Below, piece by piece: positions 2,101-53,891 of a DNA stretch of 64,000 bases. Under the pieces are notes generated by a model. That model did not search any database. It had not been told where the DNA came from and saw only the letters and a list, made by a program, of their open reading frames with translations. The DNA comes from Bdellovibrionales bacterium (GTDB taxonomy: Bacteria > Bdellovibrionota > Bdellovibrionia > Bdellovibrionales > UBA1609). Location of the stretch: contig JALZUR010000010.1 in NCBI GenBank assembly GCA_023301025.1, positions 17,791 to 81,790 on the forward strand. Reading direction: 5' to 3'. The position numbers were made by a program, and so were the translations under genes. Within the stretch, counting starts at the first letter, position 1; each line of letters begins with the position of its first letter.

Positions 2101-4545
2101 ATGAAGACAATTGATCACATTAAAAAATCAGGACTTAAGTCAAGTGATGAGAGCTTAAACTTAGTTATAGAGCTCTATGAAAAAGGTTTAAGTCTTGGTG
2201 AAGTTTTTTTTAATTCAAAGATTTGGTCTGATAAAAGTCTCAATCTATGGAATTTAGATAAGTGCTTTTATGACTTAAACTCTCTTTCTAAGTTTAATGA
2301 GCGTAAAATAAAATATGTACAAGATCTTACCAAAAGAGAAGTCGATCAAGCAGTTGTAGACAAGCTCAATGAGACTCAGGACGTAAAGGTTTTAGAACAT
2401 TACTACAGACCTTACAAAAGAAAGAAAAAAACACGTGTTACACTTGCCAGAGAAGCTGGGCTTCAAAAGTTTGCAGAAGAGCTTTTAGAAAATGCAAAAA
2501 AAGGTGAAAACTTTTCTGAAGGCATAGAATCAGCTGCAAAAAAATATATTCAACCAGCTCTTGGATACATTACCTTTGAGCACGTTCTTAAAGGTGCACA
2601 AGACATTATAGTAGATCAGGTTTTAAAAGATCGTTTTGATTTACGCCTTGAGGTTTTTAAAGTTGCCACTAGTGAGGCTAAAATTTCAATTCAAGCAGGT
2701 GAAAAGTTTCAAGAAAACTCTAGGTTTTCATCTTTTGTAAAGTCACCTGCGCATAAAACTGCTTTTTATAAAAATCCTAAAAACTTTGATAAATTTCCGA
2801 TTATTAAAAAAGCTTGGGAAGATGGACATCTAAAAGTAAGTCTTGATTTTGATTTAACATCCTTAAAAGAAAATTTTGAAAAAGCCTTTGCACCTGATGG
2901 ACTACAAGGAGATCTTACATCTTTTTTAAAATCTTGTGCTAAGAAAGCTTTTGAAGTTCATGTTCTGCCTTCAGTTACTACTGAAGTCTTTGATGACTTT
3001 TATGAAACCTCTCGCGCTGTTTATATAGATAAACTTAAAAAAGACTATCTTTCTCTTTTAAATACCCCGGCTTTTGGTGAAAAATCTGTTTTATCGCTTT
3101 ATGAGAAATCTCCACAAGAGGTGTTTTTAGTTCTTGTAAGTCACAAAGGGGATTATGTTTCGTCTACTACAATTGATAGTACTAAAGATGATGTTGTTGA
3201 AAATCTAACAACTGTTTTAGGTGACATTGTAAAAAACATTGATTTAGGTGCTATCGCACTTCCTTTGAGTCTTAACTCCAGACAACTTGAGAAGTTTTTT
3301 AAAAAAGCGCTAGAAAACTTAAAAAAATCAGAGTCAGTGCCTTTAGTTTACGTTTCATCTAGGGGTATTCCACAATTTATTGGAAAACCTGAGGCTAAGT
3401 TTAATCTGCCTTCTGAAAAAGAGAGTGGTAAGATTGATAATTTTATACTTTCTGCATTTAGGCTCGCTAAGCGTCTTCAAGATCCACTTTATGAGTATGC
3501 AGAGCACGAACCTTCTAAGCTTTTAGATGTTCCGTCATTTATTGAATCAGAAGCTTTAGATAAAGAGCTTTTTAAGATACTAAGTTTTGCAGTTTGTCGT
3601 TCTGGTCTAGAGTCTAAAAACGTAAGTCCTGGTTTAATTCAAAATCTTAATTGGTTTAAAGAAGATGCAGGTGAAACTATTGATGAAGTGTTTAAATTCT
3701 CTTCAGATTTTAGATCGACTAATGCCGAAGAGAAAAAAAACCTAGAAAGTTTAATTCCAAAAAGTTTTACAAGATTTTCTAAGTTTTTTAAATTTTCAAA
3801 CGCTTTAAATCTGCTCGATAAATCAAGAATTTCAGTTGATGACTTCTCAAAGATAAAAGATTTTTTCAAAGACAATGAGCTCTCACTACTTAAAGGTCCT
3901 TTGGACACATCTAATGAAAAGTGGACCACGCTTTTTGAAAAAGATTGGGTGAATTATATAAACTCTGAACTTTCTGCTCCCTTTAAAGATCTTAGAAAAG
4001 ACTACAAGGTTTTTAGTTTTTCAAAGTCAGCATTTTCTCTTGAAGACCTAGTTGTAGATAACCTTTATTGGGGTGTTGTTTCTAAGTTTTCTTCTTTTGG
4101 TGCCTTTGTCGATCTCGGTGTCGGAGTAAACGGCCTTGTTCATCTTTCGGAACTTTCAAATGAGTATGTTTCAGATCCAAGAAAAGTTCTAAGACTTGAT
4201 CAGTGGATTTTAATTAAGCTTTTAAAGGTTGATGTAAAATCAAAACAGATCTCACTATCTAAAACAAAAGCCGATCAAAGAAACGATGGAAAAAGAGAAG
4301 GCCGTAGAGACAGTAGCTTTAAGAATTCAAACAAGAGCGGTGATAGAAGTAACAGCTCTTACAAAGGCAGTAAAAGTGGTTATCAAGGCAAAGGCTCTGG
4401 TAAGTCTAAAAGATTTGATAAGTCAGAAGGTTCAAAAAATACTTCTGGTAGAAAGCCTTTTGATAAAAACTCTTCTAGTAAAAAACGTAGCACCAGACCT
4501 TTTAATAACCCCTTTGCTCAAGCCCTTGGTGATCTAAAAGATTAA
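2101..4545 (+). CDS. Tex-like transcription accessory protein (divergent) with C-terminal S1 domain and low-complexity tail
   Basis: Tex-type motif YYRPYKRKKKTRVTLAREAGL. S1 domain is YWGVVSKFSSFGAFVDLGVGVNGLVHLSELS. The last ~100 aa are rich in Ser, Lys and Gly. Confidence 0.7.
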   Translation: MKTIDHIKKSGLKSSDESLNLVIELYEKGLSLGEVFFNSKIWSDKSLNLWNLDKCFYDLNSLSKFNERKIKYVQDLTKREVDQAVVDKLNETQDVKVLEHYYRPYKRKKKTRVTLAREAGLQKFAEELLENAKKGENFSEGIESAAKKYIQPALGYITFEHVLKGAQDIIVDQVLKDRFDLRLEVFKVATSEAKISIQAGEKFQENSRFSSFVKSPAHKTAFYKNPKNFDKFPIIKKAWEDGHLKVSLDFDLTSLKENFEKAFAPDGLQGDLTSFLKSCAKKAFEVHVLPSVTTEVFDDFYETSRAVYIDKLKKDYLSLLNTPAFGEKSVLSLYEKSPQEVFLVLVSHKGDYVSSTTIDSTKDDVVENLTTVLGDIVKNIDLGAIALPLSLNSRQLEKFFKKALENLKKSESVPLVYVSSRGIPQFIGKPEAKFNLPSEKESGKIDNFILSAFRLAKRLQDPLYEYAEHEPSKLLDVPSFIESEALDKELFKILSFAVCRSGLESKNVSPGLIQNLNWFKEDAGETIDEVFKFSSDFRSTNAEEKKNLESLIPKSFTRFSKFFKFSNALNLLDKSRISVDDFSKIKDFFKDNELSLLKGPLDTSNEKWTTLFEKDWVNYINSELSAPFKDLRKDYKVFSFSKSAFSLEDLVVDNLYWGVVSKFSSFGAFVDLGVGVNGLVHLSELSNEYVSDPRKVLRLDQWILIKLLKVDVKSKQISLSKTKADQRNDGKREGRRDSSFKNSNKSGDRSNSSYKGSKSGYQGKGSGKSKRFDKSEGSKNTSGRKPFDKNSSSKKRSTRPFNNPFAQALGDLKD

Positions 4546-5521: not shown

Positions 5522-8233
5522 ATGGCAGCAAAAAAACTAGTAATTGTAGAGTCCCCAACAAAAGCGAGAACTATTAAAAAGTTTTTATCTAAAGACTATA
5601 TTGTAGAATCTTGTATGGGTCATATCAGAGACCTTCCTAAATCGGCAAAAGAGATTCCTGAAAAGTACAAAAAAGAAAAATGGGCACGCATTGGTGTAAA
5701 TGTAGAAAAAAATTTTGAACCTATTTATCTCGTTCCAAAAACCAAAACAAAAGTGGTTACACAACTTAAAAAACTTTTAAAAGAAGCAGACGAGCTCTAT
5801 CTCGCAACGGACGAAGACAGAGAAGGAGAGAGCATCAGTTGGCATCTATTAGAGGTGCTAAAGCCAAAGGTTCCTGTTAAACGAATGGTCTTTCATGAGA
5901 TCACAAAAACTGCCATCTTAAATGCTTTAGATGACTGTCGAGAGATTAACTTTGACATGGTCAGAGCCCAAGAGGCCAGGCGTATATTAGATAGATTAGT
6001 TGGGTTTACTATCTCGCCACTTTTGTGGAAGAAAGTTGCCTATGGTTTATCAGCCGGAAGAGTTCAATCTGTTGCAGTAAAGCTTATCTCAGAAAAAGAA
6101 CAAGAGCGTGTGTCTTTTGTTAAATCATTTTATTCATCTATTTCGGGAACAGCTGAAAAAGATGGAAAAGCTTTTGAAACTAGGCTGACTGAGTGGAAAG
6201 GAAAACGCTTAGCGACAGGAAAAGATTTTGATGAAAAAAATGGGGAGCTTAAACCTGATAAAAAAGATCTTGTTCATTTAAATGAGCAAACATCTTTAGA
6301 TGTTTTAAAAGAATTAGAAAACAAGGTTTTAGATGTTTTATCAGTTGATGAACGCCCTGTATCTAGAAAACCAGCAGCCCCTTTTATAACTTCGACATTG
6401 CAACAAGAGGCCAACAGGAAACTTGGTTTAAGTTCTAGAGAGGCCATGCAAGTGGCGCAAAAGTTATACGAGCAAGGTCACATTACTTATATGAGAACAG
6501 ACTCTACCTTTTTATCAGGGCAGGCTATAAACGCTGCAAGGGACTGTATAAAAGATCTCTATGGTAAAGAGTACTTACCTAAAGACCCTCGTGATTATTC
6601 TAAGAAAAAATCAAAAGGCGCACAAGAGGCCCATGAAGCTATTCGCCCAGCTGGTTCTGAATTTATTAAACCCGAAGATACCAATTTAAAAGGTCCGCAG
6701 TTTGAGCTTTACGATCTAATTTGGAAGAGAACGGTTGCATCTCAAATGGTCAATGCTGAGCAAAAACAAATGTCTGTGAAGATCAAAGCTGGAGAAGGGC
6801 TTTTTACATCAAACGGGTTATCTTTAGTTTTTCCTGGATTTTTTAAAGCGTATGTCGAAGGTTTCGATGATCCTGAAAAAGCTTTGAACAACAAAGAAGT
6901 CCATCTTCCGCAACTGAGTGTGGGGGATAAGGCCAAATTAAAAGAGCTTAGAAATAACCAACATGAAACAAAAGCTCCTGCTAGATACACAGAAGCTAGC
7001 CTGGTTCAAAAACTAGAAAAAGAAGGGGTAGGTAGACCTTCAACTTACGCTTCAATCATTGGAACCGTTCAAGATCGTGGTTATGTTAATAAAGTTGGTA
7101 ACTCTCTACAGCCAACCTTTACAGCCTTGATTGTTACAAAGCTTTTAGAAAAACATTTATCTAATTATGTTGATTTAAACTTTACATCTGAGATGGAAAA
7201 CTCTTTAGATCTTATTGCGGATGGTGAAAAAGAATGGACGCAGTATTTAAAAAGTGTCTACCTCGGTAAAACTGGTCTTCGAGAAGAGGTCGAAAAAAAT
7301 GAAGAAAAAATTAACCCTGAAGAGTCTAGAGCTATCACTTTAAAAAAGCTTGAGGGTTTAACGTTTAAAGTAGGGCGCTACGGTGCTTACGTGTGTAAAG
7401 ACAACAATGGAGAAGAGGTATGCGCCTCTCTTCCTGAAGACAGAGCACCTGCTGATGTTGAAGTCTCTTACGTTGATAAGATTATTGATCAAAAGATAAA
7501 CGGAACTGATGCTTTGGGTAAAGACCCAAAAACGGATATGCCTGTTTATGTTTTAACTGGACGTTACGGACCATACGTACAATTAGGTGAAAGTGACGGC
7601 GGTGAAAAAGAAAAGCCAAAACGCTCATCTATTCCGCCAACTATGGAGCCTGACAATTTAACACTTGATCAAGCACTTTCTTTGTTAGCACTTCCTAAGG
7701 TTTTAGGAGAGCATCCTGATACAAAGGTAGAGATAAAAGCAGGACTCGGAAGATTCGGTCCATTTATTGTTTATGAAAAAGATTTTAGATCTATTCCAAA
7801 AGATATGGATCTTTTTACAATCACTTTAGAACAAGCTTTAGAACTTTTATCTCGTCCAAAAAGAGGTAGAGGTAAGGCTGCTCCTTTGAAAGTTTTAGGA
7901 GAGCATCCAAAGGTAAAAGTAGAAGTTGCTGTTTACAACGGAAAGTATGGTCCTTATATTAAGTGCGATAAAGTGAATGTTTCTGTCCCTGAAGGGCAGA
8001 AACCAGAAGACGTTACTTTGGAACAGGCTGTTGATCTTTTGGCTGATCGCATAGATGAGGTGTCTGCAAAGAAAACTGCTAAAAAAGCCACCAAAAAAAC
8101 TAGCAAAAAGACCAGTAAGAAGACAGCCAAAAAAGCGACAAAGAAAAAAGCCAGTAAAAAGAAAGTGGCTTCTGAAACTGTTGAAAAACCTGAATTTAAG
8201 AAAAAGATAATTACACGAAAAAAAGTCACATAA
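5522..8233 (+). CDS. topA: DNA topoisomerase I
   Basis: Toprim (LVIVESPTKA, DEDREGE), catalytic region YMRTDS, four Cys-less C-terminal repeats (GRYGAYV, GRYGPYV, GRFGPFI, GKYGPYI) and a Lys-rich tail. Confidence 0.95.
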   Translation: MAAKKLVIVESPTKARTIKKFLSKDYIVESCMGHIRDLPKSAKEIPEKYKKEKWARIGVNVEKNFEPIYLVPKTKTKVVTQLKKLLKEADELYLATDEDREGESISWHLLEVLKPKVPVKRMVFHEITKTAILNALDDCREINFDMVRAQEARRILDRLVGFTISPLLWKKVAYGLSAGRVQSVAVKLISEKEQERVSFVKSFYSSISGTAEKDGKAFETRLTEWKGKRLATGKDFDEKNGELKPDKKDLVHLNEQTSLDVLKELENKVLDVLSVDERPVSRKPAAPFITSTLQQEANRKLGLSSREAMQVAQKLYEQGHITYMRTDSTFLSGQAINAARDCIKDLYGKEYLPKDPRDYSKKKSKGAQEAHEAIRPAGSEFIKPEDTNLKGPQFELYDLIWKRTVASQMVNAEQKQMSVKIKAGEGLFTSNGLSLVFPGFFKAYVEGFDDPEKALNNKEVHLPQLSVGDKAKLKELRNNQHETKAPARYTEASLVQKLEKEGVGRPSTYASIIGTVQDRGYVNKVGNSLQPTFTALIVTKLLEKHLSNYVDLNFTSEMENSLDLIADGEKEWTQYLKSVYLGKTGLREEVEKNEEKINPEESRAITLKKLEGLTFKVGRYGAYVCKDNNGEEVCASLPEDRAPADVEVSYVDKIIDQKINGTDALGKDPKTDMPVYVLTGRYGPYVQLGESDGGEKEKPKRSSIPPTMEPDNLTLDQALSLLALPKVLGEHPDTKVEIKAGLGRFGPFIVYEKDFRSIPKDMDLFTITLEQALELLSRPKRGRGKAAPLKVLGEHPKVKVEVAVYNGKYGPYIKCDKVNVSVPEGQKPEDVTLEQAVDLLADRIDEVSAKKTAKKATKKTSKKTSKKTAKKATKKKASKKKVASETVEKPEFKKKIITRKKVT

Positions 8234-27414: not shown

Positions 27415-28347
27415 TTATTTTTTATTGTATAAGGGGTGATGGATGTTTAAAGACTGACTCACGTCACTTATATCAAGGTGTGTGTATTTTTCTGTTGTAG
27501 ATATGTTTTTATGTCCCAAAAGTTCTTGAATTGAGCGAAGATTTACTCCTGATCTTAAGAGGTGAGTGGCAAAACTATGTCTTAAACTGTGAGGCCCGAT
27601 TTTTTTTTGTAAATGAAGCAAGCCTCTTTTGGAAACCCAACCATAAACCGTTCGAGTGTTAAGTGGTTTTTCTTGTTTTAAGTATATATCGCTCTTTGAT
27701 TTAGATATAAAGTAGATCAGTTCAAATATCTTGGTTGGTAGAACAATCCATTCTATTTTACCACCTTTTCGTTCAACAAGCAGAGATCTTTTAGCCTTAT
27801 CCAAATCCTTATACTTAGCTTTTGAGGCTTCTGAGACACGTAAGCCTCCGCCATATAAGAGTAAATTAACTAAAAGTTCATTAGAAAATCTTGTAGAACT
27901 GTCTTTATTTGAACTGTGATAGTCAGAAAGTAGGGATTCAAAGTAAAGTTCAACCTCTTCAAAGCTTAAGTAGGTAGGTATTTTTTGAACTTTTTTAACA
28001 GAATTTGGGAGTCTTAAGGCGTAGTTTTTAGGTGTAAATTCTTGTTCAAAAAGCCAGTTTAAAAAAACTCTTAAGGTTGTTATTCGTCTTTCTTTTGTGG
28101 CAGGGGAGAGCTTTGAAATTTTTTTTGGAAGCTCTTTTAAAAGCTCATCAATAGAGACCTTGGTGCCATTTTTTGGCATGTAGACAAGCTTTGTCTCTTT
28201 GAGTTTAATTGTAGTAAATTCATATGGCTTAAGTATTTGATTGAGATCACAAGCCATAGAACGCAGGCTGTTAGGGCGGTAGAAGAGAGAATTCCCTTTT
28301 AATTCTATAAACTTAAGTATGTGTATGCTTTTTACAAAAAATGTCAC
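27415..28347 (-). CDS. Tyrosine recombinase, XerC/XerD family
   Basis: Catalytic signature GGLRVSEA (R), HSLRHSFATHLL (H-x-x-R) and LGHKNISTTEKYTH (H, Y). Confidence 0.85.
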   Translation of the reverse strand: MTFFVKSIHILKFIELKGNSLFYRPNSLRSMACDLNQILKPYEFTTIKLKETKLVYMPKNGTKVSIDELLKELPKKISKLSPATKERRITTLRVFLNWLFEQEFTPKNYALRLPNSVKKVQKIPTYLSFEEVELYFESLLSDYHSSNKDSSTRFSNELLVNLLLYGGGLRVSEASKAKYKDLDKAKRSLLVERKGGKIEWIVLPTKIFELIYFISKSKSDIYLKQEKPLNTRTVYGWVSKRGLLHLQKKIGPHSLRHSFATHLLRSGVNLRSIQELLGHKNISTTEKYTHLDISDVSQSLNIHHPLYNKK

Positions 28348-28541: not shown

Positions 28542-29606
28542 ATGACTTCAACCAAGTTTCCATTAGGTGGCCCAAGTAAGGTAATCAACACATCTGGAAA
28601 AAGTTTGCCAAGAATACCTTTGGGTCAATCACAGCAGGTTTTTTCAAATAAAGAGATCGTCTACGAGTCTGAAATAATGAATAAACTCATGGCCATGGTA
28701 GATCGTGTGTCTCCATCAAACGCTACAGTTTTAGTTTTAGGTGAGAGTGGTACAGGAAAAGAACTTGTCGCTCAGGCTATACATGAAAAATCTAAAAGAT
28801 CTCATAAGCCCTTTGTTGCAATTAACTGTGGTGCTCTAAGAGAAACTCTTTTAGAGAGTGAACTTTTTGGTCATGAAAAAGGTGCTTTTACTGGTGCTTA
28901 TGCTCAAAAGATTGGTTTAGCTGAAGCTGCTAATGGTGGAACTCTATTTTTAGATGAAATAGGGGAACTTACTCCAGGTATTCAAGCTAAAATCCTTAGA
29001 TTCTTACAAGAAGGTGAGATCTATAGAGTGGGTGGAAAAGAGCCAATCAAAGTTGATGTAAGACTTATCAGTGCTACAAACAGAGATTTGGAAAAAGAAG
29101 TTTTAGATGGAACTTTTAGAGAAGATCTTTATTACAGAATAAACACAATAGTCGTTAGCACTCCTCCTTTAAGAAAAAGAAAAGAAGATATTCCAGCTTT
29201 GATTGATTATTTTTTAACTACTGGAGCTCATAGATATTTAAACAGAGGTTTAAAAGTTTCTCCTGAGGCGCTACAAGTTTTAGTTAACTACGACTGGCCA
29301 GGTAACATTAGAGAGCTTCAAAACGTTTGTGAACGTTTACAGATTTTATCAGAAGGTGAAACTGTTCAGATCACAGATCTTCCTGAGTTTGTAAAAACTC
29401 CTGAAGAAAAGCTTTTTATTGATGACTATGATCCATCAATCACTCTTCATGAGTTAGAAAGAAAGTATATCTTAAAAGCTTTAAGTCATTTTGAAGGTAA
29501 CAAAACTCAAGCGGCTCAAGCTTTAGGTGTAACTATAAAAACACTTTATAATAAGCTCCATCAGTACGGTGAGTTTGATAAATTCGCTATTCATTCTAAA
29601 ACGTAA
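28542..29606 (+). CDS. Sigma-54-dependent transcriptional activator (bEBP) lacking a sensory domain
   Basis: Walker A GESGTGKE, GAFTGA loop, Walker B LFLDEIGEL, C-terminal Fis-type HTH. Only ~45 aa precede the AAA+ core. Confidence 0.9.
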   Translation: MTSTKFPLGGPSKVINTSGKSLPRIPLGQSQQVFSNKEIVYESEIMNKLMAMVDRVSPSNATVLVLGESGTGKELVAQAIHEKSKRSHKPFVAINCGALRETLLESELFGHEKGAFTGAYAQKIGLAEAANGGTLFLDEIGELTPGIQAKILRFLQEGEIYRVGGKEPIKVDVRLISATNRDLEKEVLDGTFREDLYYRINTIVVSTPPLRKRKEDIPALIDYFLTTGAHRYLNRGLKVSPEALQVLVNYDWPGNIRELQNVCERLQILSEGETVQITDLPEFVKTPEEKLFIDDYDPSITLHELERKYILKALSHFEGNKTQAAQALGVTIKTLYNKLHQYGEFDKFAIHSKT

Positions 29607-29617
29607 GTGCTTTGACC

Positions 29618-29637
29618 CCAAGGTTTAGACACCTTGG
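29618..29637 (+). terminator. Possible terminator hairpin after the bEBP gene
   Basis: CCAAGGT / ACCTTGG 7-bp stem with a weak T-rich tail. Confidence 0.4.
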
Positions 29638-29956
29638 TTACGTAATTTTCTACACTCAATAATGCTTTACATGCTGAGGCCTGAGTTTGATGCAATATTG
29701 TTTTAATTTTTTTCAATCTCCTGCCTTATAGTATTTCAAAAACTGTATCAGCATTAAAAAAATCATTCGTGTAGACGTAGTCTTTTTCTAAGGTGGTCAC
29801 AAAAATTTTCTACATTCCGTTTGATTGAGAGCTGCTGAGTCTTTTAAGTTCTTTAAAATTGTATTGTGAAATGTAAACTTATTATACAAAATTAAAATTT
29901 TTTCAAAAAGTCTAAGATAACAAACAGTCCTTTTAATTACATGATAAAAATTAAAG

Positions 29957-31252
29957 ATGTTTTTATGTAGATTAGGGTTAATATTTTTTTTGTTTTTTTC
30001 GTTTTCTAGTGGTTTTGCTTCCACGTGTTCAGAAGTGCTTAATACTAAACCGTTATTTTCATTAACTTTATTAGAATCTTTAAAAACACTGAACATCAAT
30101 CATCTTATTACAAAAGTAGTTCTAAACTCATTTGAAAATATTAGAGAGCTTAGCCCTAATGCCACTCTTAAAGCATACACGATTTTAGATAGAGAATATC
30201 TTTTATCAAAGGGCTTTGTGATTGAAGAATTTAATGAAAATCAGATTGTAGTAGAAACAGATTTTGGTTTTTCTGTTTTAAATGAGGAAGAATTTAAAGC
30301 TTGGGTTGAGCTAGAAGAAATTATAGATGACGATTCAAAAGCACAGTTTTTTGTTGAAGAAGCAGCTTTTACAGAGATGGTTTATCCAGGAATAACAAAC
30401 CAAGCTTCTGATTGGTTGAAGTTTTCGGCTTATACTCATTTTCACGCGCAAGAATTAGCGGAAAATTTTTTTAAAAAAAGAAGAGTCTCACAGGATGTAA
30501 TTTTAGCTCGAAGAAAAAAAGAGTATTCAAAACTCAGTAACAAAACAGATCAGTATATGTTTCCCTTTGACTACGGCTTGGATATTGGGGAAGTCTCAAT
30601 TTCAAAGGTAAATGCACAGATTGTTTTAAAAACTCTTTCAAGACATTTTATGCTCTACAATTTATATGTTAAAAAGACTAATGAAGAAGGTGAGTTTTAT
30701 TATCAAAAACTTAGAGAAGTTGTTGATCAAGACAGCTTAATTCTATTTAGTCGTTTTCCTGAACTTTTAAGAATCTTCCCTTTATTTGAAGGTGGGCATT
30801 TCTCTATCAATAGGCGAACTGAATATATTGGGAGTGAAGATCAGTATATACTCTCGGATGTTAAATTGAGAGCAATACAAATTAAGCAATTCAAAATGCT
30901 CAAAAATTTTGTTATTTATGCTTTTGATGACGAAGATCAAGAGGGTTCAGGTGTAGAGTTAAAAGCTGTTTTGAATATGACTTTTGAAAATCCTACAGAG
31001 GCTTTAGATAGATTAGGAGCAGCTAGTGTTGAATCCTCTTTTTTAAATGAGATGTTAAGCTATGATCATGTTTTGAAGCGTTATATCAAAGAGTTTAACG
31101 AAATTACGGGATATAATTTGCAAATTGGTGTTTTTGTTTTGGGCGATCAAGTTGATTTTATGACAAGAGAGTATAAATTTAAGTTTGTTGGTGTTGAAAT
31201 TGAACCTTATGTCCAAGCTGCTTTTTATTTATTCATAGCCTTTAAAATTTAG
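29957..31252 (+). CDS. Secreted protein, uncharacterised paralog family (member 1)
   Basis: Signal peptide. Shares ordered blocks with 42435-43826 and 43829-45217: VETDFGF, DWL(K/R), F(M/I)FPF, SRFPEL, GHF, TGY.L, AFY.F. Confidence 0.7.
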   Translation: MFLCRLGLIFFLFFSFSSGFASTCSEVLNTKPLFSLTLLESLKTLNINHLITKVVLNSFENIRELSPNATLKAYTILDREYLLSKGFVIEEFNENQIVVETDFGFSVLNEEEFKAWVELEEIIDDDSKAQFFVEEAAFTEMVYPGITNQASDWLKFSAYTHFHAQELAENFFKKRRVSQDVILARRKKEYSKLSNKTDQYMFPFDYGLDIGEVSISKVNAQIVLKTLSRHFMLYNLYVKKTNEEGEFYYQKLREVVDQDSLILFSRFPELLRIFPLFEGGHFSINRRTEYIGSEDQYILSDVKLRAIQIKQFKMLKNFVIYAFDDEDQEGSGVELKAVLNMTFENPTEALDRLGAASVESSFLNEMLSYDHVLKRYIKEFNEITGYNLQIGVFVLGDQVDFMTREYKFKFVGVEIEPYVQAAFYLFIAFKI

Positions 31253-31588: not shown

Positions 31589-33169
31589 ATGTTTAAAATA
31601 CAGGTCTTAATGTTTGTTTTACTAGCATCTGCAGTGTCTCACGCAGATCAAGAGCGTTTCTGGACAAGTGACTCAGAGAAACTACAAAAAATTAAAGAAA
31701 ATTCAATTTCAAAAGAAATATGCAATGAAGTTGAGTTTAAAGAGCTTACAGAAAATTATGTATTTTCTTACAATGATGAGGGTGAGGTTTGCAGCGTATA
31801 CGATCTTAGTTTTTCTAACTTAAGATCGCTCTTAAAAACAAAAGCGGTAACAGAGCTAAGAGTGACTAGCCCAAAGCTTAGTGATTATAAGATATTCTTA
31901 GATGGTGAGGCTAATGAAGACATAGCAAGAGAGTTTGTTAAAGGTAAAACTCTTTCTTTAGATAAATCTTGGTATTCTAACCTCAGCTTTAAAAATAAGA
32001 ATGTATTAGAAAAAAATAAAGAGGGCTTAGTTAAAGAGTTTAGTTTTTCTGATATTGAAATTTTTAAAGAAGATATTGAATTTAGTGCCAAAGACAAAGA
32101 ACTGCTCAGCACACTTTTAGACTCATCAAAACGGAGTAGAGCATTTATAGACAATCCAAAGTCTATTTTAGGAGGCATTCAGTTTAAATATGACTCTTTA
32201 AAAAAGTCTTATAAGGTGTTTTTTGATTTAGACTTTTTACCTTTAAATGGACCTGTAAAACTTGTTGATCATGAAATTCAGTACAGGGTTTGGATGACTG
32301 CTAAGATTAGAGGTATTGTTAGATTTACTTTGAACACAGTTTTAGGAACAGTGTCGACCTCTCAAACAGGACGAATCGCAAGCTATGTTGTTAATGAAGC
32401 TTTTGATGCAATTGAAATGACTTATGCGTATCAATCTACAAAGTTTGAAAAAGCACTTCATATGGCTCTCAACGGAGATCTTAAAACAAATATTTCAAGA
32501 GAAGACTTACAAAATTCATTATATCTTCTTTATATAAAAGATAATGGAACTTTTATTAATATTATTTCATCAGGGGTGCAGAACCAAGTTATAAACATTG
32601 ATAATTTATACACCTTTGGAAAAAGTTCAGCTTTAAATGCTTATGCCTTAAGACAAAATATAAGTGATACAAATTACTCAAGAATGTACTACAAAGAGAA
32701 GTGTGATTTAGAAACCTATGCGTATTATTTTGCGAAGTGTGAGAATCAAGGTGCACTTTACTCTTTGATTTCTAACAAGCAGGTTTTCTTATGGTCTTTT
32801 GGAAACCCTAAAATTTATAATTTCGATAGGCCTTGGGAAGTCTTTTTAATGAGGTCTGCGACATATCTATTAGCAGGAGCTGTTGAAGTAAACTTCTTGA
32901 GTTTTCCAAACTGGATTTCTAATCAAGTCTCGCAAGCTTTAAAAAGTTACTCTCAATCTGGTTTATTGGATGAAGCCTACTTAGTATCTGAACTTCAAGC
33001 AAATGAGAGTTTAGATTCAATGCAAAAATTAATCTTAGATGAAATTATGAGTAAAAGTGCACTTTCTTTTATACCAAGAAGTGTCCAGTCTCTTAACAAA
33101 TTACGAGATGTAAATAAAGTTCTTTTGAATAAAAAGTTTGAAAATCAAAAAGTATCAGGGGTGGAATAA
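31589..33169 (+). CDS. Secreted protein, unknown function (526 aa)
   Basis: Signal peptide MFKIQVLMFVLLASAVSHA, very strong SD (AGGAGGGGGG), four Cys. Confidence 0.65.
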   Translation: MFKIQVLMFVLLASAVSHADQERFWTSDSEKLQKIKENSISKEICNEVEFKELTENYVFSYNDEGEVCSVYDLSFSNLRSLLKTKAVTELRVTSPKLSDYKIFLDGEANEDIAREFVKGKTLSLDKSWYSNLSFKNKNVLEKNKEGLVKEFSFSDIEIFKEDIEFSAKDKELLSTLLDSSKRSRAFIDNPKSILGGIQFKYDSLKKSYKVFFDLDFLPLNGPVKLVDHEIQYRVWMTAKIRGIVRFTLNTVLGTVSTSQTGRIASYVVNEAFDAIEMTYAYQSTKFEKALHMALNGDLKTNISREDLQNSLYLLYIKDNGTFINIISSGVQNQVINIDNLYTFGKSSALNAYALRQNISDTNYSRMYYKEKCDLETYAYYFAKCENQGALYSLISNKQVFLWSFGNPKIYNFDRPWEVFLMRSATYLLAGAVEVNFLSFPNWISNQVSQALKSYSQSGLLDEAYLVSELQANESLDSMQKLILDEIMSKSALSFIPRSVQSLNKLRDVNKVLLNKKFENQKVSGVE

Positions 33170-34596
33170 TGAAATCTTTTAAAGCTTTAGCAATTTTATT
33201 ATTTTCTATCCACTCATATGCTCAAGGTGATACTTCAGTCAAAGTTGGAGTTGTAGACTCTGGCTTTTACATGAAGCACACACTTTTAAAAGATCAACTT
33301 TGGACAAATATAGAAGAGTTAGACAACCGTTTAGATGATGATGGTAATGGCTATGTTGATGACTTTCACGGATGGAACTTTGCTGAAAATTCAAAATTTT
33401 TATTTGATATTGAAGAGGTTCAAGGGATTCAACCAATCACCTTTAAACTTATGTCTATTGCTTCAAAAATGTCAGCTGGTATTGAAACAGAAGATGAAAA
33501 AAAGTTTATAGAAGAAAACCTTATTAATCTTCCTATTCCAGAGCGAAACAAAAGAATTGCTGAACTTAATTTTTATGGACAGTATGCTCATGGTACTCAT
33601 GTAGCAGGCCTTATTGCTAAAAATGATCCAACAGCAAAACTTGTAAACCTTAAGTTTTTTCCAGCATCGTATTCGCCTGTAAGGTCATCTCTTAAAAACT
33701 TTACTAAGGGATTAGTCTCGACTATAGAAAATTTTATATTCGAAACTGTTGCAAAGGTTACTAACCAGAGCTTTCAGCTTGCAGGAGATTATATCAGTGA
33801 TAAGAAAGTTGACGTGGTTAACATGAGTTTAGGTATACCCATGGATAGGCTTGCCTCATTTGCTTTGATTGCTAAAGGCAATTTAAAACCAACTGATGAA
33901 GAGCTCTCAATTGAGAGTCAAAAAATATACAAGAAGTTTGAAGAACAAGCTCTAGTTTGGATTTCAAAAGCAGAAGATACTTTGTTTATTGCAGCCTCTG
34001 GAAATTCAGGACTTAATAATGATGTAATCCCAGCATTTCCTGCAAACGTTGATCATCCCAACATGATTTCAGTAGGAGCCTCAGTGGGGTATGACTTTAT
34101 GCCAGAGTTTTCAAATTACGGAATGAGTGTAGATCTCGTAGCTCCTGGAACAGCTGCACTAAGTTCCGCCCCTGGACCAACTGATGATTTTGAAATTGAA
34201 ATGACAGGAACCTCAATGGCAGCCCCCTATGTTGCAGGAGTGGCATCTGGTATTTTAACTAGAAACCCAAGGCTAACACCTGTTGAGGTTAAGAAAATTC
34301 TTTTAGAAACTGTTGATGTCAAAGAGTGGCTTAAGGAAAAAGTACTGACTTCAGGAATTGTTAATAAAGACAGAGCATTTCTTGCAGCAGAGCTTTCAGT
34401 TGATGGTGACCTTGATCAGGTTATTTTATTTTCAAAAACAAAGATTTTGGATGTAGAGCCTTCAGGGTTACAAACCGTTACTGATAGTCTTTTTAGCCCT
34501 TTAAGAGCTCGTTTTTCTAGCAAAGAAGATCGTAATGCACAAAGTATAATAAGTAGAGCCTTAGGTTTAAGCTTTTCAAAAGATATTGAAGAGTAG
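33169..34596 (+). CDS. Subtilisin-like serine protease (S8 family)
   Basis: Signal peptide. Catalytic D30 (VGVVDSG), H141 (HGTHVAG), N (ASGNSG) and S349 (GTSMAAPYVAG). The ATG overlaps the upstream stop as TAATG. Confidence 0.9.
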   Translation: MKSFKALAILLFSIHSYAQGDTSVKVGVVDSGFYMKHTLLKDQLWTNIEELDNRLDDDGNGYVDDFHGWNFAENSKFLFDIEEVQGIQPITFKLMSIASKMSAGIETEDEKKFIEENLINLPIPERNKRIAELNFYGQYAHGTHVAGLIAKNDPTAKLVNLKFFPASYSPVRSSLKNFTKGLVSTIENFIFETVAKVTNQSFQLAGDYISDKKVDVVNMSLGIPMDRLASFALIAKGNLKPTDEELSIESQKIYKKFEEQALVWISKAEDTLFIAASGNSGLNNDVIPAFPANVDHPNMISVGASVGYDFMPEFSNYGMSVDLVAPGTAALSSAPGPTDDFEIEMTGTSMAAPYVAGVASGILTRNPRLTPVEVKKILLETVDVKEWLKEKVLTSGIVNKDRAFLAAELSVDGDLDQVILFSKTKILDVEPSGLQTVTDSLFSPLRARFSSKEDRNAQSIISRALGLSFSKDIEE

Positions 34597-40086: not shown

Positions 40087-40404
40087 ATGAACCGTGAACA
40101 GAGAATAAAAAGTACCCTTATTGAGGCCTTAGATCCTAAGGCCTTTGAAATAGTTAATGAGAGTCACATGCACTCAGGTCCAAGAACTGAGAGTCATTTT
40201 AAAGTTTTTGCAGTCTCTGACATTTTCAATAGTAAGAGCAAAGTTGAAAGACAGCAGTTTGTGTATGCTCTTTTAAAAGACGAGTTTGATAAAAAAAACA
40301 ATGATCCTCTTCATGCTTTGAGCCTTCGATTAAAAACTCCAGAAGAGGTGGCTAGCAGCTTAAAAGTCTTTGAATCACCAAATTGTAAAACTAAACAAAA
40401 ATAA
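40087..40404 (+). CDS. bolA: BolA family protein
   Basis: SHFKVFAVSDIF...RQQFVYALL...LHALSL pattern. Confidence 0.85.
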   Translation: MNREQRIKSTLIEALDPKAFEIVNESHMHSGPRTESHFKVFAVSDIFNSKSKVERQQFVYALLKDEFDKKNNDPLHALSLRLKTPEEVASSLKVFESPNCKTKQK

Positions 40405-40578: not shown

Positions 40579-41214
40579 ATGAAAAATTCGATTTGGCTAA
40601 AAGCTCTAACCTCTGCTTTAATTTTAAGTTTTTTAGTGTCTTTTGGTCTTTATTACTTTTCTGATCGTTTTTTTCAGGCAAAAAATAAACAAACCATGAT
40701 TAAATCTGCAGAGCTTGGCACAAGTGCTGACAATGCTGATGTTGTGCTGCCAATTGGAAAAAATGTTCCTGACTTTGAGCTTGCCGATGTACTTGCAGAC
40801 GTTGAGATCAATAGAAGACTTTTAGCAGATACAAAAACAGTAAAGATTATAAACTTTTGGGCCAGTTGGTGTGAACCATGTGTAGAGGAGTTTTCTTCTT
40901 TTGCAAGATTAGTAAAAGATTACGAAGGTGAGATTTCTTTTTATGGTGTTGGACAAGATGATTCTAGAGAAGAGTCAAAAACATTTATTAAAGCTTTTAA
41001 TTCTGAATTTAAAGACATAAGTAACATTTACTTTTTATTTGATGTTAACAAAAAAACTGCAAAAACTTACGGAGTTCTTGCTCTTCCTGAGACGTTTATT
41101 ATTGATGCCAACGGAAAGCTTTTAAAAAGAATCACTGGTTTTTTTGATTGGGATCAAGATCAAGTAAGAGTATTTTTTAATAAAATGCTTAGCACCAAAA
41201 GATCAGGTCTTTAA
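40579..41214 (+). CDS. TlpA/ResA-like periplasmic thiol:disulfide oxidoreductase
   Basis: N-terminal TM anchor and FWASWCEPC active site. Confidence 0.85.
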   Translation: MKNSIWLKALTSALILSFLVSFGLYYFSDRFFQAKNKQTMIKSAELGTSADNADVVLPIGKNVPDFELADVLADVEINRRLLADTKTVKIINFWASWCEPCVEEFSSFARLVKDYEGEISFYGVGQDDSREESKTFIKAFNSEFKDISNIYFLFDVNKKTAKTYGVLALPETFIIDANGKLLKRITGFFDWDQDQVRVFFNKMLSTKRSGL

Positions 41215-41215
41215 T

Positions 41216-42142
41216 ATGTTTACTTTATTAAAATTAATTTTAACATCTATAGGCAATTTGAAACTTAAATTAAGTGCTAATTTTAAAAAAACAGTTACTC
41301 ATAGCCTTCTTTACGCCTCTTTTTTTTTAAACATCCCCCTAGATCTAGTACACGATGACTACGATAAAACCAAAAGAGTTGCTCTTCAGCCCACCCCTTA
41401 CGAAATTGGTGCTGATGCCTTTAAGACACCTAAAGATGTTAAAAATTTTTTAAGTGATAACAGAGTAAGTGATGATTTTGTTGTTAGCCATGAGCAGTAC
41501 CTAATCAGTGCCTCACATATTTTTGAAATCCCTTATGCCTTTCAAACATGCCTTATATACAGTGAATCTAAGTTTAAACCTGAGGCTGTAAGCCCTGTGG
41601 GTGCTAGAGGAGTAGCTCAGTTTACAAAAGACACCTATGATTTTATAGATAAGGTGCTACGTGTAGGTTATAAAAATTTAGAAGATCTTTCGGACAATAG
41701 AATTGCTTATGGATTCGAAACCAGACCTAAGAGCAAGTACGTGTTATTCAATAAAATTTTGTTCTCAGAGCTTTATATCAAGTGGCAAGCCTATGTGAGC
41801 AACAACAATATAAAGTCTATTCCTTTTAAGTCTAATAGATTTAAGCGTGTGGTGCATGATCCTAAGTTTGCAATAGGCATGTCTTCTCTTTATCTAAAGT
41901 ATTTAAAAGAACGCCTTAGATACAACCTTAAGAGTCAGTATAACTACTCTGAAGGACCACTCAATCCAAATATCTACTTGAGTTTAGCTGGTGCATACAA
42001 TCAAGGTATTGGCAGAACATGGAAGCTTTCTTCTAGAAATAAAGATGTTGATTTAAAGTACATCATTGATTTTCAATCAAGGGTTAGAGAGACAAAGACC
42101 TATATCAAGTCTATTAATGGCTGCATGTCTTCTTATCAGTAG
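41216..42142 (+). CDS. Lytic transglycosylase (SLT domain)
   Basis: Catalytic region YSESKFKPEAVSPVGARGVAQFT and AYNQG. Confidence 0.8.
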   Translation: MFTLLKLILTSIGNLKLKLSANFKKTVTHSLLYASFFLNIPLDLVHDDYDKTKRVALQPTPYEIGADAFKTPKDVKNFLSDNRVSDDFVVSHEQYLISASHIFEIPYAFQTCLIYSESKFKPEAVSPVGARGVAQFTKDTYDFIDKVLRVGYKNLEDLSDNRIAYGFETRPKSKYVLFNKILFSELYIKWQAYVSNNNIKSIPFKSNRFKRVVHDPKFAIGMSSLYLKYLKERLRYNLKSQYNYSEGPLNPNIYLSLAGAYNQGIGRTWKLSSRNKDVDLKYIIDFQSRVRETKTYIKSINGCMSSYQ

Positions 42143-42434: not shown

Positions 42435-43826
42435 ATGTTTAAGACTCTATTCACGGTATTTATATTAGCATTGCCAAATTTGGCAGTGGCAGAGTCTATA
42501 TGCAATCAACTCCTTCAGGCACAAGACACTACGAAAACCTTCAGTTCAAACCTAAAAGACACGCTTATTGAAACACTAAAAGTGGAGAACCTCTTGGATG
42601 AAGTAGATCTGGGATCTTTAGGGGATGTAAGATATCTTAATCCGTCATCATCCTTATCTGTTTACACAGTTTTAGATAAAGATCTGCTTGTTGAAAAAGA
42701 GTTTTATATTGATGAGTTAAATCTTAACCTTAATGGCACTCACCGAATTGTAGAAACAGATTTTGGCTTTGCAGTATTAGACAGTGAAGCTTTAGAGGCT
42801 TGGTCTATGTTGGAGCAAACTTTGTCTGATTCTGTAAAGGCAGGTGAGTTTATAGAATATGTGTCTTTATCGGAATTTATTCACCCAGGTGGAATCACAA
42901 AACGAGCTACTGATTGGTTGAGAAAGTCTAGATATCTTCATTTTAAAGCACAATTTTTGGCTGAGAATTTTTTTAGAGAAAAACTAAATAATAGTGGAGA
43001 ATCCGTTCCTTATCGTAAGATCTTTATAAAACGAAAACTTGAGTATCAAAGGCTTACAAAAAAAGACAATACGTTTATGTTCCCATTTGATTCAGCTTTA
43101 GAAGATGGTGTTGCGAAAATGTCTGATACAGATGCTCAGTCTGTTTTAACTATTCTTGCCAGGCATTTTATCTTATCACATATGTTTGTTAAAAAACGTT
43201 TAGATAACACCTATGTTAGACTTGGTGATATTCTTGATCGTGACAGTCTATTTTTAATCAGTCGTTTTCCTGAGCTTTTTCCTATTTACCCTTTGTTAAA
43301 AAGTGGTCACTTTCATGTTGAGACCTCTACTGAGTTTGTAGGTAGTGAAGATTTATACAGTATAGGTAGCAATGATTTTGAACCTAAAAAAGTTAAACTT
43401 AATTTGATCTCTCAGAAAGGTAGAAAAGGTGTTTCTTCTGCTGTAATGAATGTGAATCTTCTTAAAAAATTTAATATTTTTGTTGAAGGAAGATCTGAGA
43501 CTCAACAGCATAAAGTTAGAATTACTGCGGAATTAACACTTAGTTTTAAAGAAAAAAATAGGCTTTTAAAGAATGTGAATAGACATTCTATTGATGAAGT
43601 TTTTATTGAAGATGTTTTAGGTTTTCATTACTTTTTAAATAGGCAAGTGGAACTTTTTAATTCTAAAACTGGCTATCATTTGCCAGAGGCACAAATACTC
43701 TTAAGTGACGATAGTTATGAAGACAATCAAAGAACTTATACCTTAAGTTTTGGAAATATGTACCTAAAGCCTCATGTTTTATCTGCTTTTTATATCTTTT
43801 TAAATTCTCAAATAAGGTCTGATTGA
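42435..43826 (+). CDS. Secreted protein, uncharacterised paralog family (member 2)
   Basis: Signal peptide and the same conserved blocks as 29957-31252 (VETDFGFAVL, ATDWLRKS, FMFPFD, LISRFPELF, SGHFHV, TGYHLP, SAFYIF). Confidence 0.7.
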   Translation: MFKTLFTVFILALPNLAVAESICNQLLQAQDTTKTFSSNLKDTLIETLKVENLLDEVDLGSLGDVRYLNPSSSLSVYTVLDKDLLVEKEFYIDELNLNLNGTHRIVETDFGFAVLDSEALEAWSMLEQTLSDSVKAGEFIEYVSLSEFIHPGGITKRATDWLRKSRYLHFKAQFLAENFFREKLNNSGESVPYRKIFIKRKLEYQRLTKKDNTFMFPFDSALEDGVAKMSDTDAQSVLTILARHFILSHMFVKKRLDNTYVRLGDILDRDSLFLISRFPELFPIYPLLKSGHFHVETSTEFVGSEDLYSIGSNDFEPKKVKLNLISQKGRKGVSSAVMNVNLLKKFNIFVEGRSETQQHKVRITAELTLSFKEKNRLLKNVNRHSIDEVFIEDVLGFHYFLNRQVELFNSKTGYHLPEAQILLSDDSYEDNQRTYTLSFGNMYLKPHVLSAFYIFLNSQIRSD

Positions 43827-43828
43827 AT

Positions 43829-45217
43829 ATGTTTCAAACCAAAGCATTAGTTTTAGCTTTATCTTTTCTTAGTATTTTTCCAAGCCGTTCTTTTGCCAGT
43901 GATCTATGTCAAAAAATACTGTCTTCAAAAAATAAAACTGACTTTTCAATGATTAATCAAAGCTTATCTCATGCAAAAGTTTTGAGTGACGGTGAAATTG
44001 ACCTTTCAATCTACGATTTTTTATCAATTGGTGTAGATGAGTCTATAAAAAGAGTCTATTTCGGTGATCATCCAGGAATGAAAGGTTTATTACCGGAAAG
44101 TGATTTAAGAGTCTTCTCTGCAATAGATATGGAAGCCTTAGATGGCTTTCCTGTAGATAACTTAAAAGATACTGACTATGTCGTTGAAACAGAGTTTGGT
44201 TATGCTGTAATGAGTGCTGAGAACTTTAGGTATTGGAAAGATTTAGCTAAGATCATTTCAGACCCTAAAAAAGCAAAAGATTATATAGAGACAGCTTCTA
44301 ACACCGAAAATCTTTATTTACCGGGTTTAACTCGTTCTGCTTTTGATTGGTTGAGGTGGTCTGTGAATGCTGAGCTTACTTCATTCAATGAGGCTAAAAA
44401 AGTTTTAGGAGTTAAAGGTAAAAATGGTGCAATTGACAGTTTAGGGGATATGTTCGAATTAAAAGATAAACTGTATGATGAAATGGTTCGGAAAAAAGAA
44501 TTTTTTATTTTTCCGTTTGGTGTTGATAAAAAAGAAAAGTTTAATTTTATCTCTGAAGAGTCCTCAGTGAGAGTGTTGAGCCTTCTTGCTAAGTACTTTG
44601 TTTTGTCAAATCTTTATGTTGAAAGAGATAATGAAGGTGTCGAATACATAAAACTCAGTGAGGTTTTAGATCGTGACAGTTTAATGTTGATGAGTCGTTT
44701 TCCTGAACTATTGCCTGCGGCTTCAGTTTTTGAAAGTGGTCATTTTAAAATTGTTTATGCTAAAACAAAAATCACACATGACGATTCTTACAGACTATCT
44801 AAGGTCAAATTTCCTACTAAAAAATTTAGATATACAGATTTTAAAAGTTCTTTTCGTTCTTATGTCCGCGAAGTTAAGGGTGATGCAAGAGTCAGTGGCT
44901 ATTTGACGATGACTCTTGCTGCGCCGGACATTCCTAGTAGTTTGTTGTCTGTTTCTTTTGTAAAAAAGCTTTATGAGATTGAGTTAAAGGCAATGAATAA
45001 GTGGCTTATAAAAATGCTAATAGCTTTTAATGATAAGACTGGCTATAGTTTGCCCCCAGTTCGGTTTAAGCTTTTACCAAATAATTCTAATACTTTTGAG
45101 AGAAATTATAAAGTTCAGTTTGCTCTTGATATGTTTGGTAATCCTATAAAAACTCCACCTCATGTTTTAACAGCTTTTTATGTTTTTATAGGCATTAAGC
45201 AGGCTCAAGATAGATAG
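43829..45217 (+). CDS. Secreted protein, uncharacterised paralog family (member 3)
   Basis: Signal peptide and the same blocks (VETEFGYAVM, AFDWLRWS, FIFPFG, LMSRFPELL, SGHFKI, TGYSLP, TAFYVF). The ATG lies 3 nt after the member-2 stop. Confidence 0.7.
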   Translation: MFQTKALVLALSFLSIFPSRSFASDLCQKILSSKNKTDFSMINQSLSHAKVLSDGEIDLSIYDFLSIGVDESIKRVYFGDHPGMKGLLPESDLRVFSAIDMEALDGFPVDNLKDTDYVVETEFGYAVMSAENFRYWKDLAKIISDPKKAKDYIETASNTENLYLPGLTRSAFDWLRWSVNAELTSFNEAKKVLGVKGKNGAIDSLGDMFELKDKLYDEMVRKKEFFIFPFGVDKKEKFNFISEESSVRVLSLLAKYFVLSNLYVERDNEGVEYIKLSEVLDRDSLMLMSRFPELLPAASVFESGHFKIVYAKTKITHDDSYRLSKVKFPTKKFRYTDFKSSFRSYVREVKGDARVSGYLTMTLAAPDIPSSLLSVSFVKKLYEIELKAMNKWLIKMLIAFNDKTGYSLPPVRFKLLPNNSNTFERNYKVQFALDMFGNPIKTPPHVLTAFYVFIGIKQAQDR

Positions 45218-53408: not shown

Positions 53409-53891
53409 ATGAAAGTAAATCTGATTATATTTTGTGCAATGTTTGTTTGTCTAGAAGCCTGTAATTCAGGCCTTTTTGGTTGGGGTACTAAAGTTAAAAA
53501 AGGTGAGTTGAGTGTTTCAGAAAATGATCACTCTTTTTCGGTTTCTAAAATTGAGCTTGATCCAAAAGCAAGCTTTTCGTTTAAAGTTTCAAACAATTTA
53601 AAAAAAGAAGCCTTTTCTTTTGTACTCTTAAAGAAGGGGGAAGACCCCATACTTGTTCAGCATTTGGCAATGCAAACAGGTGAGCTTCCTAGCAGTTACT
53701 ATCTATTTAAATCTGACATGATTGAACCAGGGAAGAGTTTAAAAGTTATGTTTGAATCTCCTGAGCTTCCGGGCAAGTACTATTACGTAGCTTTATCAGA
53801 AAGCCCTAAAGACAGTTTGTTTGGTACTTTGATTGTCCGTGAAGAAACAGTTCCAGTTAAAGGAGAGAGTGATGTCATCAACGAAGACTAA
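53409..53891 (+). CDS. Lipoprotein, cupredoxin-like fold without copper ligands (tentative)
   Basis: Lipobox-like LEAC. The C-terminal pattern PGKYYYVALSESPKDSLFGTLIV resembles G.Y.Y.C..H...M.G.l.V, but the Cys, His and Met positions are replaced. Confidence 0.5.
   Translation: MKVNLIIFCAMFVCLEACNSGLFGWGTKVKKGELSVSENDHSFSVSKIELDPKASFSFKVSNNLKKEAFSFVLLKKGEDPILVQHLAMQTGELPSSYYLFKSDMIEPGKSLKVMFESPELPGKYYYVALSESPKDSLFGTLIVREETVPVKGESDVINED

Follow-up and report, generated by a model that had tools for sequence, protein, structure and literature searches.

What role can a single cysteine (Cys) play in a family of exported proteins that appears to keep it without exception and to keep no other reactive residue throughout? 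The question is raised by a stretch of 64,000 nucleotides (nt) from a Bdellovibrionales bacterium (assembly GCA_023301025.1, contig JALZUR010000010.1, positions 17,791–81,790; the whole of it is called the window here), in which three genes, P1, P2 and P3, encode related proteins with predicted signal peptides, each leaving one Cys close to the N-terminus of the mature chain. The contig derives from BioSample SAMN23429949, which belongs to a set of seven bull-kelp blade metagenomes; nine metagenome-assembled genomes (MAGs) of Bdellovibrionota were rebuilt from that set (PMC9238374). Here, we describe the family to which these proteins belong, its distribution and its predicted structure, and weigh what the Cys might do. 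Our tentative answer is that it serves, on a flexible N-terminal arm, as the site of an intermolecular disulfide or another covalent tether.

The sequence-only reading of the window had singled out three forward-strand open reading frames (ORFs) as paralogs sharing an ordered set of blocks, and this proposal was confirmed. BLASTP aligned the proteins over almost their entire length, with 36% identity between P1 and P2 (E = 2e-88), 32% between P1 and P3 (E = 8e-52) and 27% between P2 and P3 (E = 1e-47), values by which the block similarity passed its statistical test; judged by sequence, the three are true paralogs whose similarity is far above chance. Every block listed in that reading was present in the three-way alignment, including VETDFGF, DWL(K/R), F(M/I)FPF, D(Q/R)DSLxLxSRFPEL, GHF, TGYxL and AFYxF. 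A hidden Markov model (HMM) of P1–P3 detected no fourth paralog among the six-frame ORFs of the window, hmmsearch --max revealed none beyond the called genes in the window or the fetched loci, and in a neighbor-joining (NJ) tree the three window copies form a clade of their own. The Sec-type signal peptides ascribed to all three proteins were likewise recovered from the sequence: they were predicted with the (-3,-1) rule, by eye and by script, and end at AxA-like sites for signal peptidase I (SPase I), namely GFA/STC in P1, AVA/ESIC in P2 and SFA/SDLC in P3 (the slash marks the predicted cut). P3 has two candidate starts, TTG at 43823 and ATG at 43829, of which the ATG is the more plausible because it lies 2 nt past the P2 stop and has an AAGG some 12 nt before it. 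The mature chains are soluble (negative grand average of hydropathicity), contain 8–14% aromatic residues and are mostly acidic, with an isoelectric point (pI) of 4.3–6.3.

The family is rare, and exhaustive profile searching was needed to uncover it, because the word-indexed protein searches, taken together, returned only the query proteins and a single relative, P0028; one of them, over 5.8 billion clusters, returned only P1–P3 themselves. HMMER, run exhaustively with a profile against 1.84 billion representatives at 50% identity, recovered 26 further relatives. Among the 29 listed matches, P1–P3 included, 14 were strong and full-length, five were distant and full-length (P0022 and P0026–P0029) and the rest were fragments; P0026–P0029, the most distant members, share 17–18% identity. 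The family thus comprises about 29 clusters at 50% identity among about 15 billion proteins, and the only name that any source gives to the relatives is 'hypothetical protein'. Among 185,579 species, represented by one genome each, one locus was found (L003), in an uncultured Pseudobdellovibrionaceae MAG of the Bdellovibrionota. A genome scan with patterns specific to P1–P3 gave no match, the 29-sequence alignment (A2) was too diverse to give search patterns, and a pattern scan of JGI metagenome contigs returned no locus. A phage, plasmid or defence-system origin was considered and rejected, given that PADLOC yielded no match and that no relatives were found on viral contigs (IMG/VR), in PHROGs or on PLSDB plasmids (tblastn). 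Bdellovibrionota-type genomes appear to be the only ones that carry the family, an observation in line with a predatory framing but no proof of it.

The residue that unites these proteins is the Cys. P1 contains C4, within the signal peptide, and C24, P2 contains only C23 and P3 only C27, in agreement with the earlier count of exactly one Cys per mature chain; ORFs of at least 200 amino acids (aa) in the window average 0.82% Cys, from which about 3.5 Cys per chain would be expected. Conservation of this residue in orthologs had been set beforehand as the test of the claim, and the Cys was found in all 26 relatives with an intact N-terminus (a count that takes in the P2 ortholog of locus L013), P0026–P0029 included. 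In alignment A2, the column is Cys in 25 of 25 residues, a degree of conservation matched by G104 and F380 and exceeded by no other column, and neither Ser nor Ala ever replaces the Cys in relatives. Across the family, it lies 3–10 residues past an AxA-type cleavage site and opens a C-x-x-[ILF]-[LF] motif; between this motif and LxPLxIxxLxxxVD, the first conserved element of the core, lies a linker rich in Ser and Thr that spans 0 to about 40 residues. A single member, P0014, seems to be an exception: it begins with 'MCFGFL' and lacks a signal peptide; its start may have been miscalled, as the 312-bp gap upstream leaves room for a longer N-terminus. Apart from the Cys, the columns conserved in at least 90% of sequences are Gly, aromatic or aliphatic, with the exception of T101. 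Distant members have lost His281 of the GHF block, D259 and R266; H281 is Gln in P0005 and P0015 and absent from P0022 and P0026–P0029. As far as the alignments can tell, no reactive residue but the Cys is kept throughout the family, and because the Cys persists beyond every candidate active-site residue, a role in biogenesis, anchoring or oligomerisation is indicated.

The number of Cys residues is as telling as their position. The count in the mature chain is always odd, one in most members and three in P0022 (L011, 8001-9353), P0026 and P0029; the latter three carry an extra C-x8-C pair, lacking in the main clade, in a loop before the DWLRW helix (e.g., YCPRGLHPRSCEW). This pair probably forms an intramolecular disulfide, which suggests that the compartment is oxidising; the N-terminal Cys still has no partner within its own chain. 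Within the window, the remaining ORFs with signal peptides serve as an internal control and have 0, 0, 2, 4, 4, 4, 4 and 6 mature Cys. An even-number bias of this kind has been described for the exported proteins of disulfide-forming bacteria (PMC2823432). Since the window's other exported proteins follow the even-Cys rule, the invariant odd Cys of the family is a real anomaly.

Structure prediction places the Cys outside the folded part of the protein. An AlphaFold model of P1 built from three sequences reached a mean predicted local distance difference test score (pLDDT) of 66, whereas the 13-sequence alignment A3 raised it to 82.2, with a predicted template modelling (TM) score, pTM, of 0.80. 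In this model, a mostly helical lobe at residues ~70–290 includes two beta-hairpins, one of which bears the ETDxG motif, and a second, alpha+beta lobe (296–431) has five long antiparallel strands on helices 355–384 and 417–430. The only stretch with pLDDT below 50 is residues 11–44, within which the Cys lies, and in the model the Cys behaves as part of an arm outside the confidently folded core. When the pLDDT-82 model was queried with Foldseek, neither the PDB (best TM score 0.16) nor BFVD contained a match at E <= 0.001; searches with the pLDDT-66 model were equally empty, and a profile search against PDB sequences gave zero matches at E <= 10. Nothing above noise was obtained for the window proteins in Pfam, NCBIfam, PADLOC or PHROGs; Pfam scans of all 29 members produced no consistent match, and the best curated-family matches (Pfam-A, NCBIfam, PHROGs and PADLOC) had E-values of 0.016–0.27, far short of the cut-offs, and differed between members. 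The earlier statement that the proteins contain no recognisable domain therefore holds, and the family is placed in no known family or fold within the libraries searched (Pfam, NCBIfam, PHROGs, PADLOC, PDB and BFVD). The C-terminal lobe shows a weak, recurring Foldseek likeness to the NTF2, START and Bet v 1-like ligand-binding folds (probability <= 0.35, TM score <= 0.28), which we treat as a lead only. In sum, the model and the sequences describe P1–P3 as what appear to be exported (periplasmic or secreted), soluble, acidic, aromatic-rich, two-lobed alpha+beta proteins. In one relative, P0006 (L007, 8001-9359), (N)EESNQEFNQES units recur in a low-complexity insertion between the FPF motif and the next helix, and the FPF-adjacent loop therefore tolerates large insertions.

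The sequence-only reading had offered three roles for the Cys, and of these covalent attachment and disulfide-linked dimerisation are favoured here over an N-terminal nucleophile. We tentatively read the Cys as the site of an intermolecular disulfide or a covalent tether, borne on a flexible arm, and consider this the most economical reading because the Cys is present family-wide, is unpaired by parity, lies outside the core and sits in a compartment that apparently forms disulfides. After Sec export and cleavage by SPase I, the mature chain would carry one unpaired Cys on its flexible N-terminal arm, and in an oxidising periplasm this Cys would form a disulfide with another molecule. The outcome could be a covalent homodimer, a heterodimer of tandem paralogs (e.g., P2 with P3) or a tether to another envelope protein. 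In each case, the arm would act as a leash that keeps the globular domains paired or at a site, and reduction could release them. The disulfide itself, the identity of the partner and any part in predation are what we infer.

The gene arrangement is compatible with this reading in part. Tandem paralog pairs occur in four loci, the window, L013, L015 and L004, and in the NJ tree they combine members of different clades. The gap between P2 and P3 is 2 nt, their counterparts in L013 overlap by 4 bp, P0011 and P0013 in L015 are 4 nt apart and P0012 and P0004 in L004 are about 90 nt apart; such tight spacing is compatible with co-production of the paralogs as partners. Charge complementarity between P2 (pI 6.0) and P3 (pI 8.2) was considered as evidence of partnership and set aside as mild and not decisive. 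Several points weigh against the disulfide. Six loci (L003, L007, L008, L009, L010 and L011) have a single copy within +/-8 kb, and heterodimerisation therefore cannot be general; no neighbouring gene conserved across the loci, that is, no conserved partner gene, was found. In Escherichia coli, single periplasmic Cys residues are often kept reduced as functional thiols, as known from work on DsbG. The hydrophobic pair that follows the Cys (C-x-x-h-L, where h is hydrophobic) could dock onto the domain instead, low pLDDT is no proof that the arm is flexible, and the disulfide is, as it stands, a sequence-based proposal.

That docking is the basis of a second possibility, in which the Cys stays reduced as a functional thiol on a swinging arm. 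It would then serve as a nucleophile, bind a metal or ligand, carry a bound hydrophobic ligand by a covalent link, or work as a redox or latency switch. The conserved hydrophobic residues at +3 and +4 from the Cys speak for this possibility, as do the compact members (P0011, P0013, P0022, P0023, P0026 and P0029), in which the motif abuts the first core helix, a polar cluster conserved in the 13 closer members (E100, T101, D102, D259, R266, H281, D295 and Y297) and the precedent of single-Cys periplasmic enzymes such as the L,D-transpeptidases. None of these polar residues is conserved family-wide, however, unlike the Cys; the arm is undocked in the AlphaFold model, the linker between Cys motif and core varies from none to about 40 residues, and Pfam, the PDB profile search and Foldseek revealed no enzyme fold, whether of a cysteine hydrolase or of another kind. 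A free thiol appears unlikely. A Cys-His dyad of the papain-like or YkuD-like kind, formed with the GHF His281, was rejected because the His is not conserved and no polar column other than T101 reaches 90%. Somewhat less probable still is a non-canonical covalent anchor, in which a dedicated enzyme would add an S-acyl or other lipid to the Cys, or link it by a thioether or thioester to an envelope component, so that the N-terminus would be a sorting or anchoring signal separate from the Lgt/Lsp lipobox. The layout of signal peptide, short variable spacer, Cys, flexible linker and domain resembles a lipoprotein tether, and the Cys is more conserved than the domain it would anchor; set against this, no conserved neighbouring modifying enzyme is seen across 11 loci, and the motif is not seen on the other exported proteins of the window, 64 kb being a small sample. 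We know of no precedent for such an anchor. A bolder form, which we hold to be distinctly unlikely, is that signal peptide, short spacer, Cys and C-x-x-h-L make up an undescribed covalent anchoring or release device of the Bdellovibrionota: a non-lipobox, redox-releasable tether that would hold a new-fold effector domain on the predator until prey contact. This domain would possibly bind hydrophobic ligands or act on the prey envelope, and a prey-directed role would, from the sequences at hand, be compatible with the taxonomic restriction and lineage-specific expansion of the family.

The remaining explanations require less, or more familiar, chemistry. The Cys might be kept for local structure (helix capping or N-terminal packing) or for efficient export or processing; any chemistry at this residue is putative, and one conserved Cys is seen in many orphan families. 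Such a role seems improbable nonetheless in view of the complete invariance at 17–18% identity, with no substitution by Ser or Ala, and of the strict exclusion of all other unpaired Cys; moreover, a Cys left unpaired is a burden under the oxidising conditions of the periplasm, and the other exported proteins of the window have even numbers. For an ordinary lipoprotein, with the Cys diacylglycerylated by Lgt and made residue +1 when Lsp removes the signal peptide, one could cite the succession of signal peptide, invariant Cys and flexible linker and the few N-termini that match the lipobox patterns. Scored against PROSITE PS51257 and the classic [LVI][ASTVI][GAS]C pattern, from which the organism's own usual lipobox may differ, 4 of 26 N-termini match the former and 1 of 26 the latter, and thus 22 and 25, respectively, fail. 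Many members have T, I, L, F or N at -1 (T, I and L in P1–P3, with FAST, AESI and ASDL before the Cys), Asp or Glu occurs at -2 to -4 (AESIC, ASDLC, AAETC, ADDLC, AELSC and SDDFC), and good AxA-type SPase I sites lie 3–10 residues upstream of the Cys. The earlier view that the Cys is outside a lipobox context is upheld by the PS51257 result, and a canonical lipoprotein is very improbable. As a control, the window was searched for canonical lipoproteins, and no convincing one emerged. A single N-terminus resembled that of a lipoprotein: MKVNLIIFCAMFVCLEA followed by CNSG, in the product of a 160-aa ORF at 53409-53891 (+), possibly a lipoprotein with an unusual L-E-A-C box that has Glu at -2. 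The one suggestion of the sequence-only reading that fared badly is Ntn-hydrolase logic, by which a short propeptide would be removed autocatalytically to expose the Cys as N-terminal nucleophile. Apart from the nearness of the Cys to the predicted mature N-terminus, the observations run against it. The nucleophile of an Ntn hydrolase stands at the start of a core beta-strand within an alpha-beta-beta-alpha sandwich; here, the Cys has no fixed place at +1 but lies at a variable distance (3–10 residues) from the cleavage site, follows a non-conserved residue, and opens a low-confidence helix (pLDDT < 50) and then a variable Ser/Thr-rich linker rather than a core strand. With no Ntn fold in Foldseek and no CBAH, Ntn or peptidase match in Pfam, this reading is extremely improbable.

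The positions of the three genes and their associated features are given in Table 1. P1 stands alone behind a 350-bp AT-rich region and is followed by a terminator-like hairpin, an arrangement from which it would probably be monocistronic. P2 and P3 lie beside a transfer RNA (tRNA) gene, tRNA-Arg(tct), and locus L013, from a related organism (35.5% GC), keeps the same order of tRNA-Arg(tct) (74-150), a P2-like gene (57% identity) and a P3-like gene (54–60%), each of the two retaining the lone mature Cys, with two extra small ORFs between the tRNA and the pair. Because this synteny is kept at about 55% amino acid identity, the arrangement beside the tRNA is old and no recent island; the tRNA is a conserved synteny landmark and no functional part of the proteins. 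The L013 P3 ortholog is split into two overlapping ORFs (2759-3628, 289 aa, and 3612-4136, 174 aa), reflecting either a frameshift, an assembly error or a pseudogene.

Table 1. Coordinates of the family genes and associated features in the window.
Feature	Position	Strand	Basis or remark
P1 (P0002), 431 aa	29957-31252	+	ORF; BLASTP to P2 and P3
P1 predicted Sec-type signal peptide, residues 1-21 (MFLCRLGLIFFLFFSFSSGFA, cut before ST), AxA-like SPase I site	29957-30019	+	(-3,-1) rule, by eye and script
P1 codon TGT of Cys24, opening CSEVL	30026-30028	+	sequence; 25/25 in A2, 26/26 N-termini
Terminator-like hairpin downstream of P1	31434-31448		terminator scan
tRNA-Arg(tct), directly upstream of P2-P3	42236-42312	+	ARAGORN
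P2 (P0001), 463 aa	42435-43826	+	ORF; first gene of the P2-P3 tandem pair
P2 codon of Cys23	42501-42503	+	sequence
P3 (P0003), 462 aa	43829-45217	+	ORF; 464 aa if the start is TTG 43823
P3 codon of Cys27	43907-43909	+	sequence

Several other genes lie close to the three. The start of P1 and the region upstream of it are overlapped by a 100-aa, Lys- and Asn-rich antisense ORF (29797-30099, -), probably a spurious AT-rich ORF. Directly upstream of P1, a 354-aa sigma-54 activator with AAA+ and helix-turn-helix domains, lacking a receiver or sensor domain, is encoded at 28542-29606 (+), and a tyrosine recombinase with a Phage_integrase domain at 27415-28347 (-). Sigma-54 control of P1 was considered and rejected, since no TGGCAC-N5-TTGC-like site occurs in 29607-29956; across the window, such sites are at chance level, with 26 observed against 26.6 expected. 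Downstream of P1, the gene at 31589-33169 (+) encodes a 526-aa exported protein with four mature Cys and without a Pfam or NCBIfam match, and its stop is overlapped by the start of a gene for an exported S8 (subtilisin-like) peptidase with no Cys (33169-34596, +). A regular pairing of the family with a downstream gene of about 530 aa was suggested by this gene and those at 9416-11011 in L004 and 9340-11007 in L008, but the products are unrelated (BLASTP E at least 0.58). Upstream of the tRNA and the P2-P3 pair lie genes for BolA (40087-40404), for a membrane-anchored TlpA/ResA-like thioredoxin with a WCEPC motif (40579-41214, +) and, after a 1-nt gap, for an SLT-domain lytic transglycosylase-like protein (41216-42142, +). 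Genes for SLT-domain proteins, BolA and sigma-54 activators also occur a few kb from family members in L008 and L011, in no fixed order. In L003, the Pseudobdellovibrionaceae member is directly preceded by a 232-aa ORF (7129-7827, +) with a HELAH (HExxH-like) motif, possibly a small metalloprotease, which is not seen beside other family members.

Many of the proteins that predatory Bdellovibrionota export have no known function, and little is understood of the ways in which they are retained, sorted and delivered. Predatory bacteria commonly possess orphan exported families; what distinguishes the present one is that its lone reactive invariant residue breaks the even-Cys rule that the neighbouring exported proteins obey. 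The newness lies at the level of the family and of the fold in the libraries searched, and not of a demonstrated mechanism. If the combination of a new fold with a covalent N-terminal tether is true, it would amount to a new kind of exported-protein architecture; if tether or new fold proves untrue, a well-delimited domain of unknown function worth depositing is still at hand.

Among known systems, bacterial lipoproteins, processed by Lgt, Lsp and Lnt at an L-[AS]-[GA]-C box, are alike in overall layout, with a signal peptide, a close invariant Cys, a flexible and often Ser/Thr-rich tether and a folded domain; they differ in that the family lacks the lipobox and has its AxA site upstream, so that the Cys would not become residue +1. 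With the Cys-Ntn hydrolases (choloylglycine hydrolase and penicillin V acylase), the family shares a Cys near the processed N-terminus, whereas its Cys is not +1 and is followed by a variable linker, its fold is not alpha-beta-beta-alpha, and neither sequence nor structure gives a match. The L,D-transpeptidases YbiS, ErfK and YnhG are single-Cys periplasmic proteins protected by DsbG and resemble the family in bearing one unpaired Cys in an exported protein of an oxidising periplasm, against the even-Cys rule. Their Cys, however, lies in a folded YkuD catalytic core with a conserved His, while that of the family, which has no YkuD match, lies on a low-confidence arm with no conserved partner. 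The AB-type toxins, which are released by reduction, and SoxY, with its swinging-arm Cys, have no sequence or fold relation to the family; the SoxY Cys is C-terminal, in a GGCGG motif, and the AB toxins have defined partner chains. As an analogy of mechanism only, they offer what the disulfide or tether reading proposes for P1–P3, a lone Cys on a flexible terminal segment that makes a reversible covalent link.

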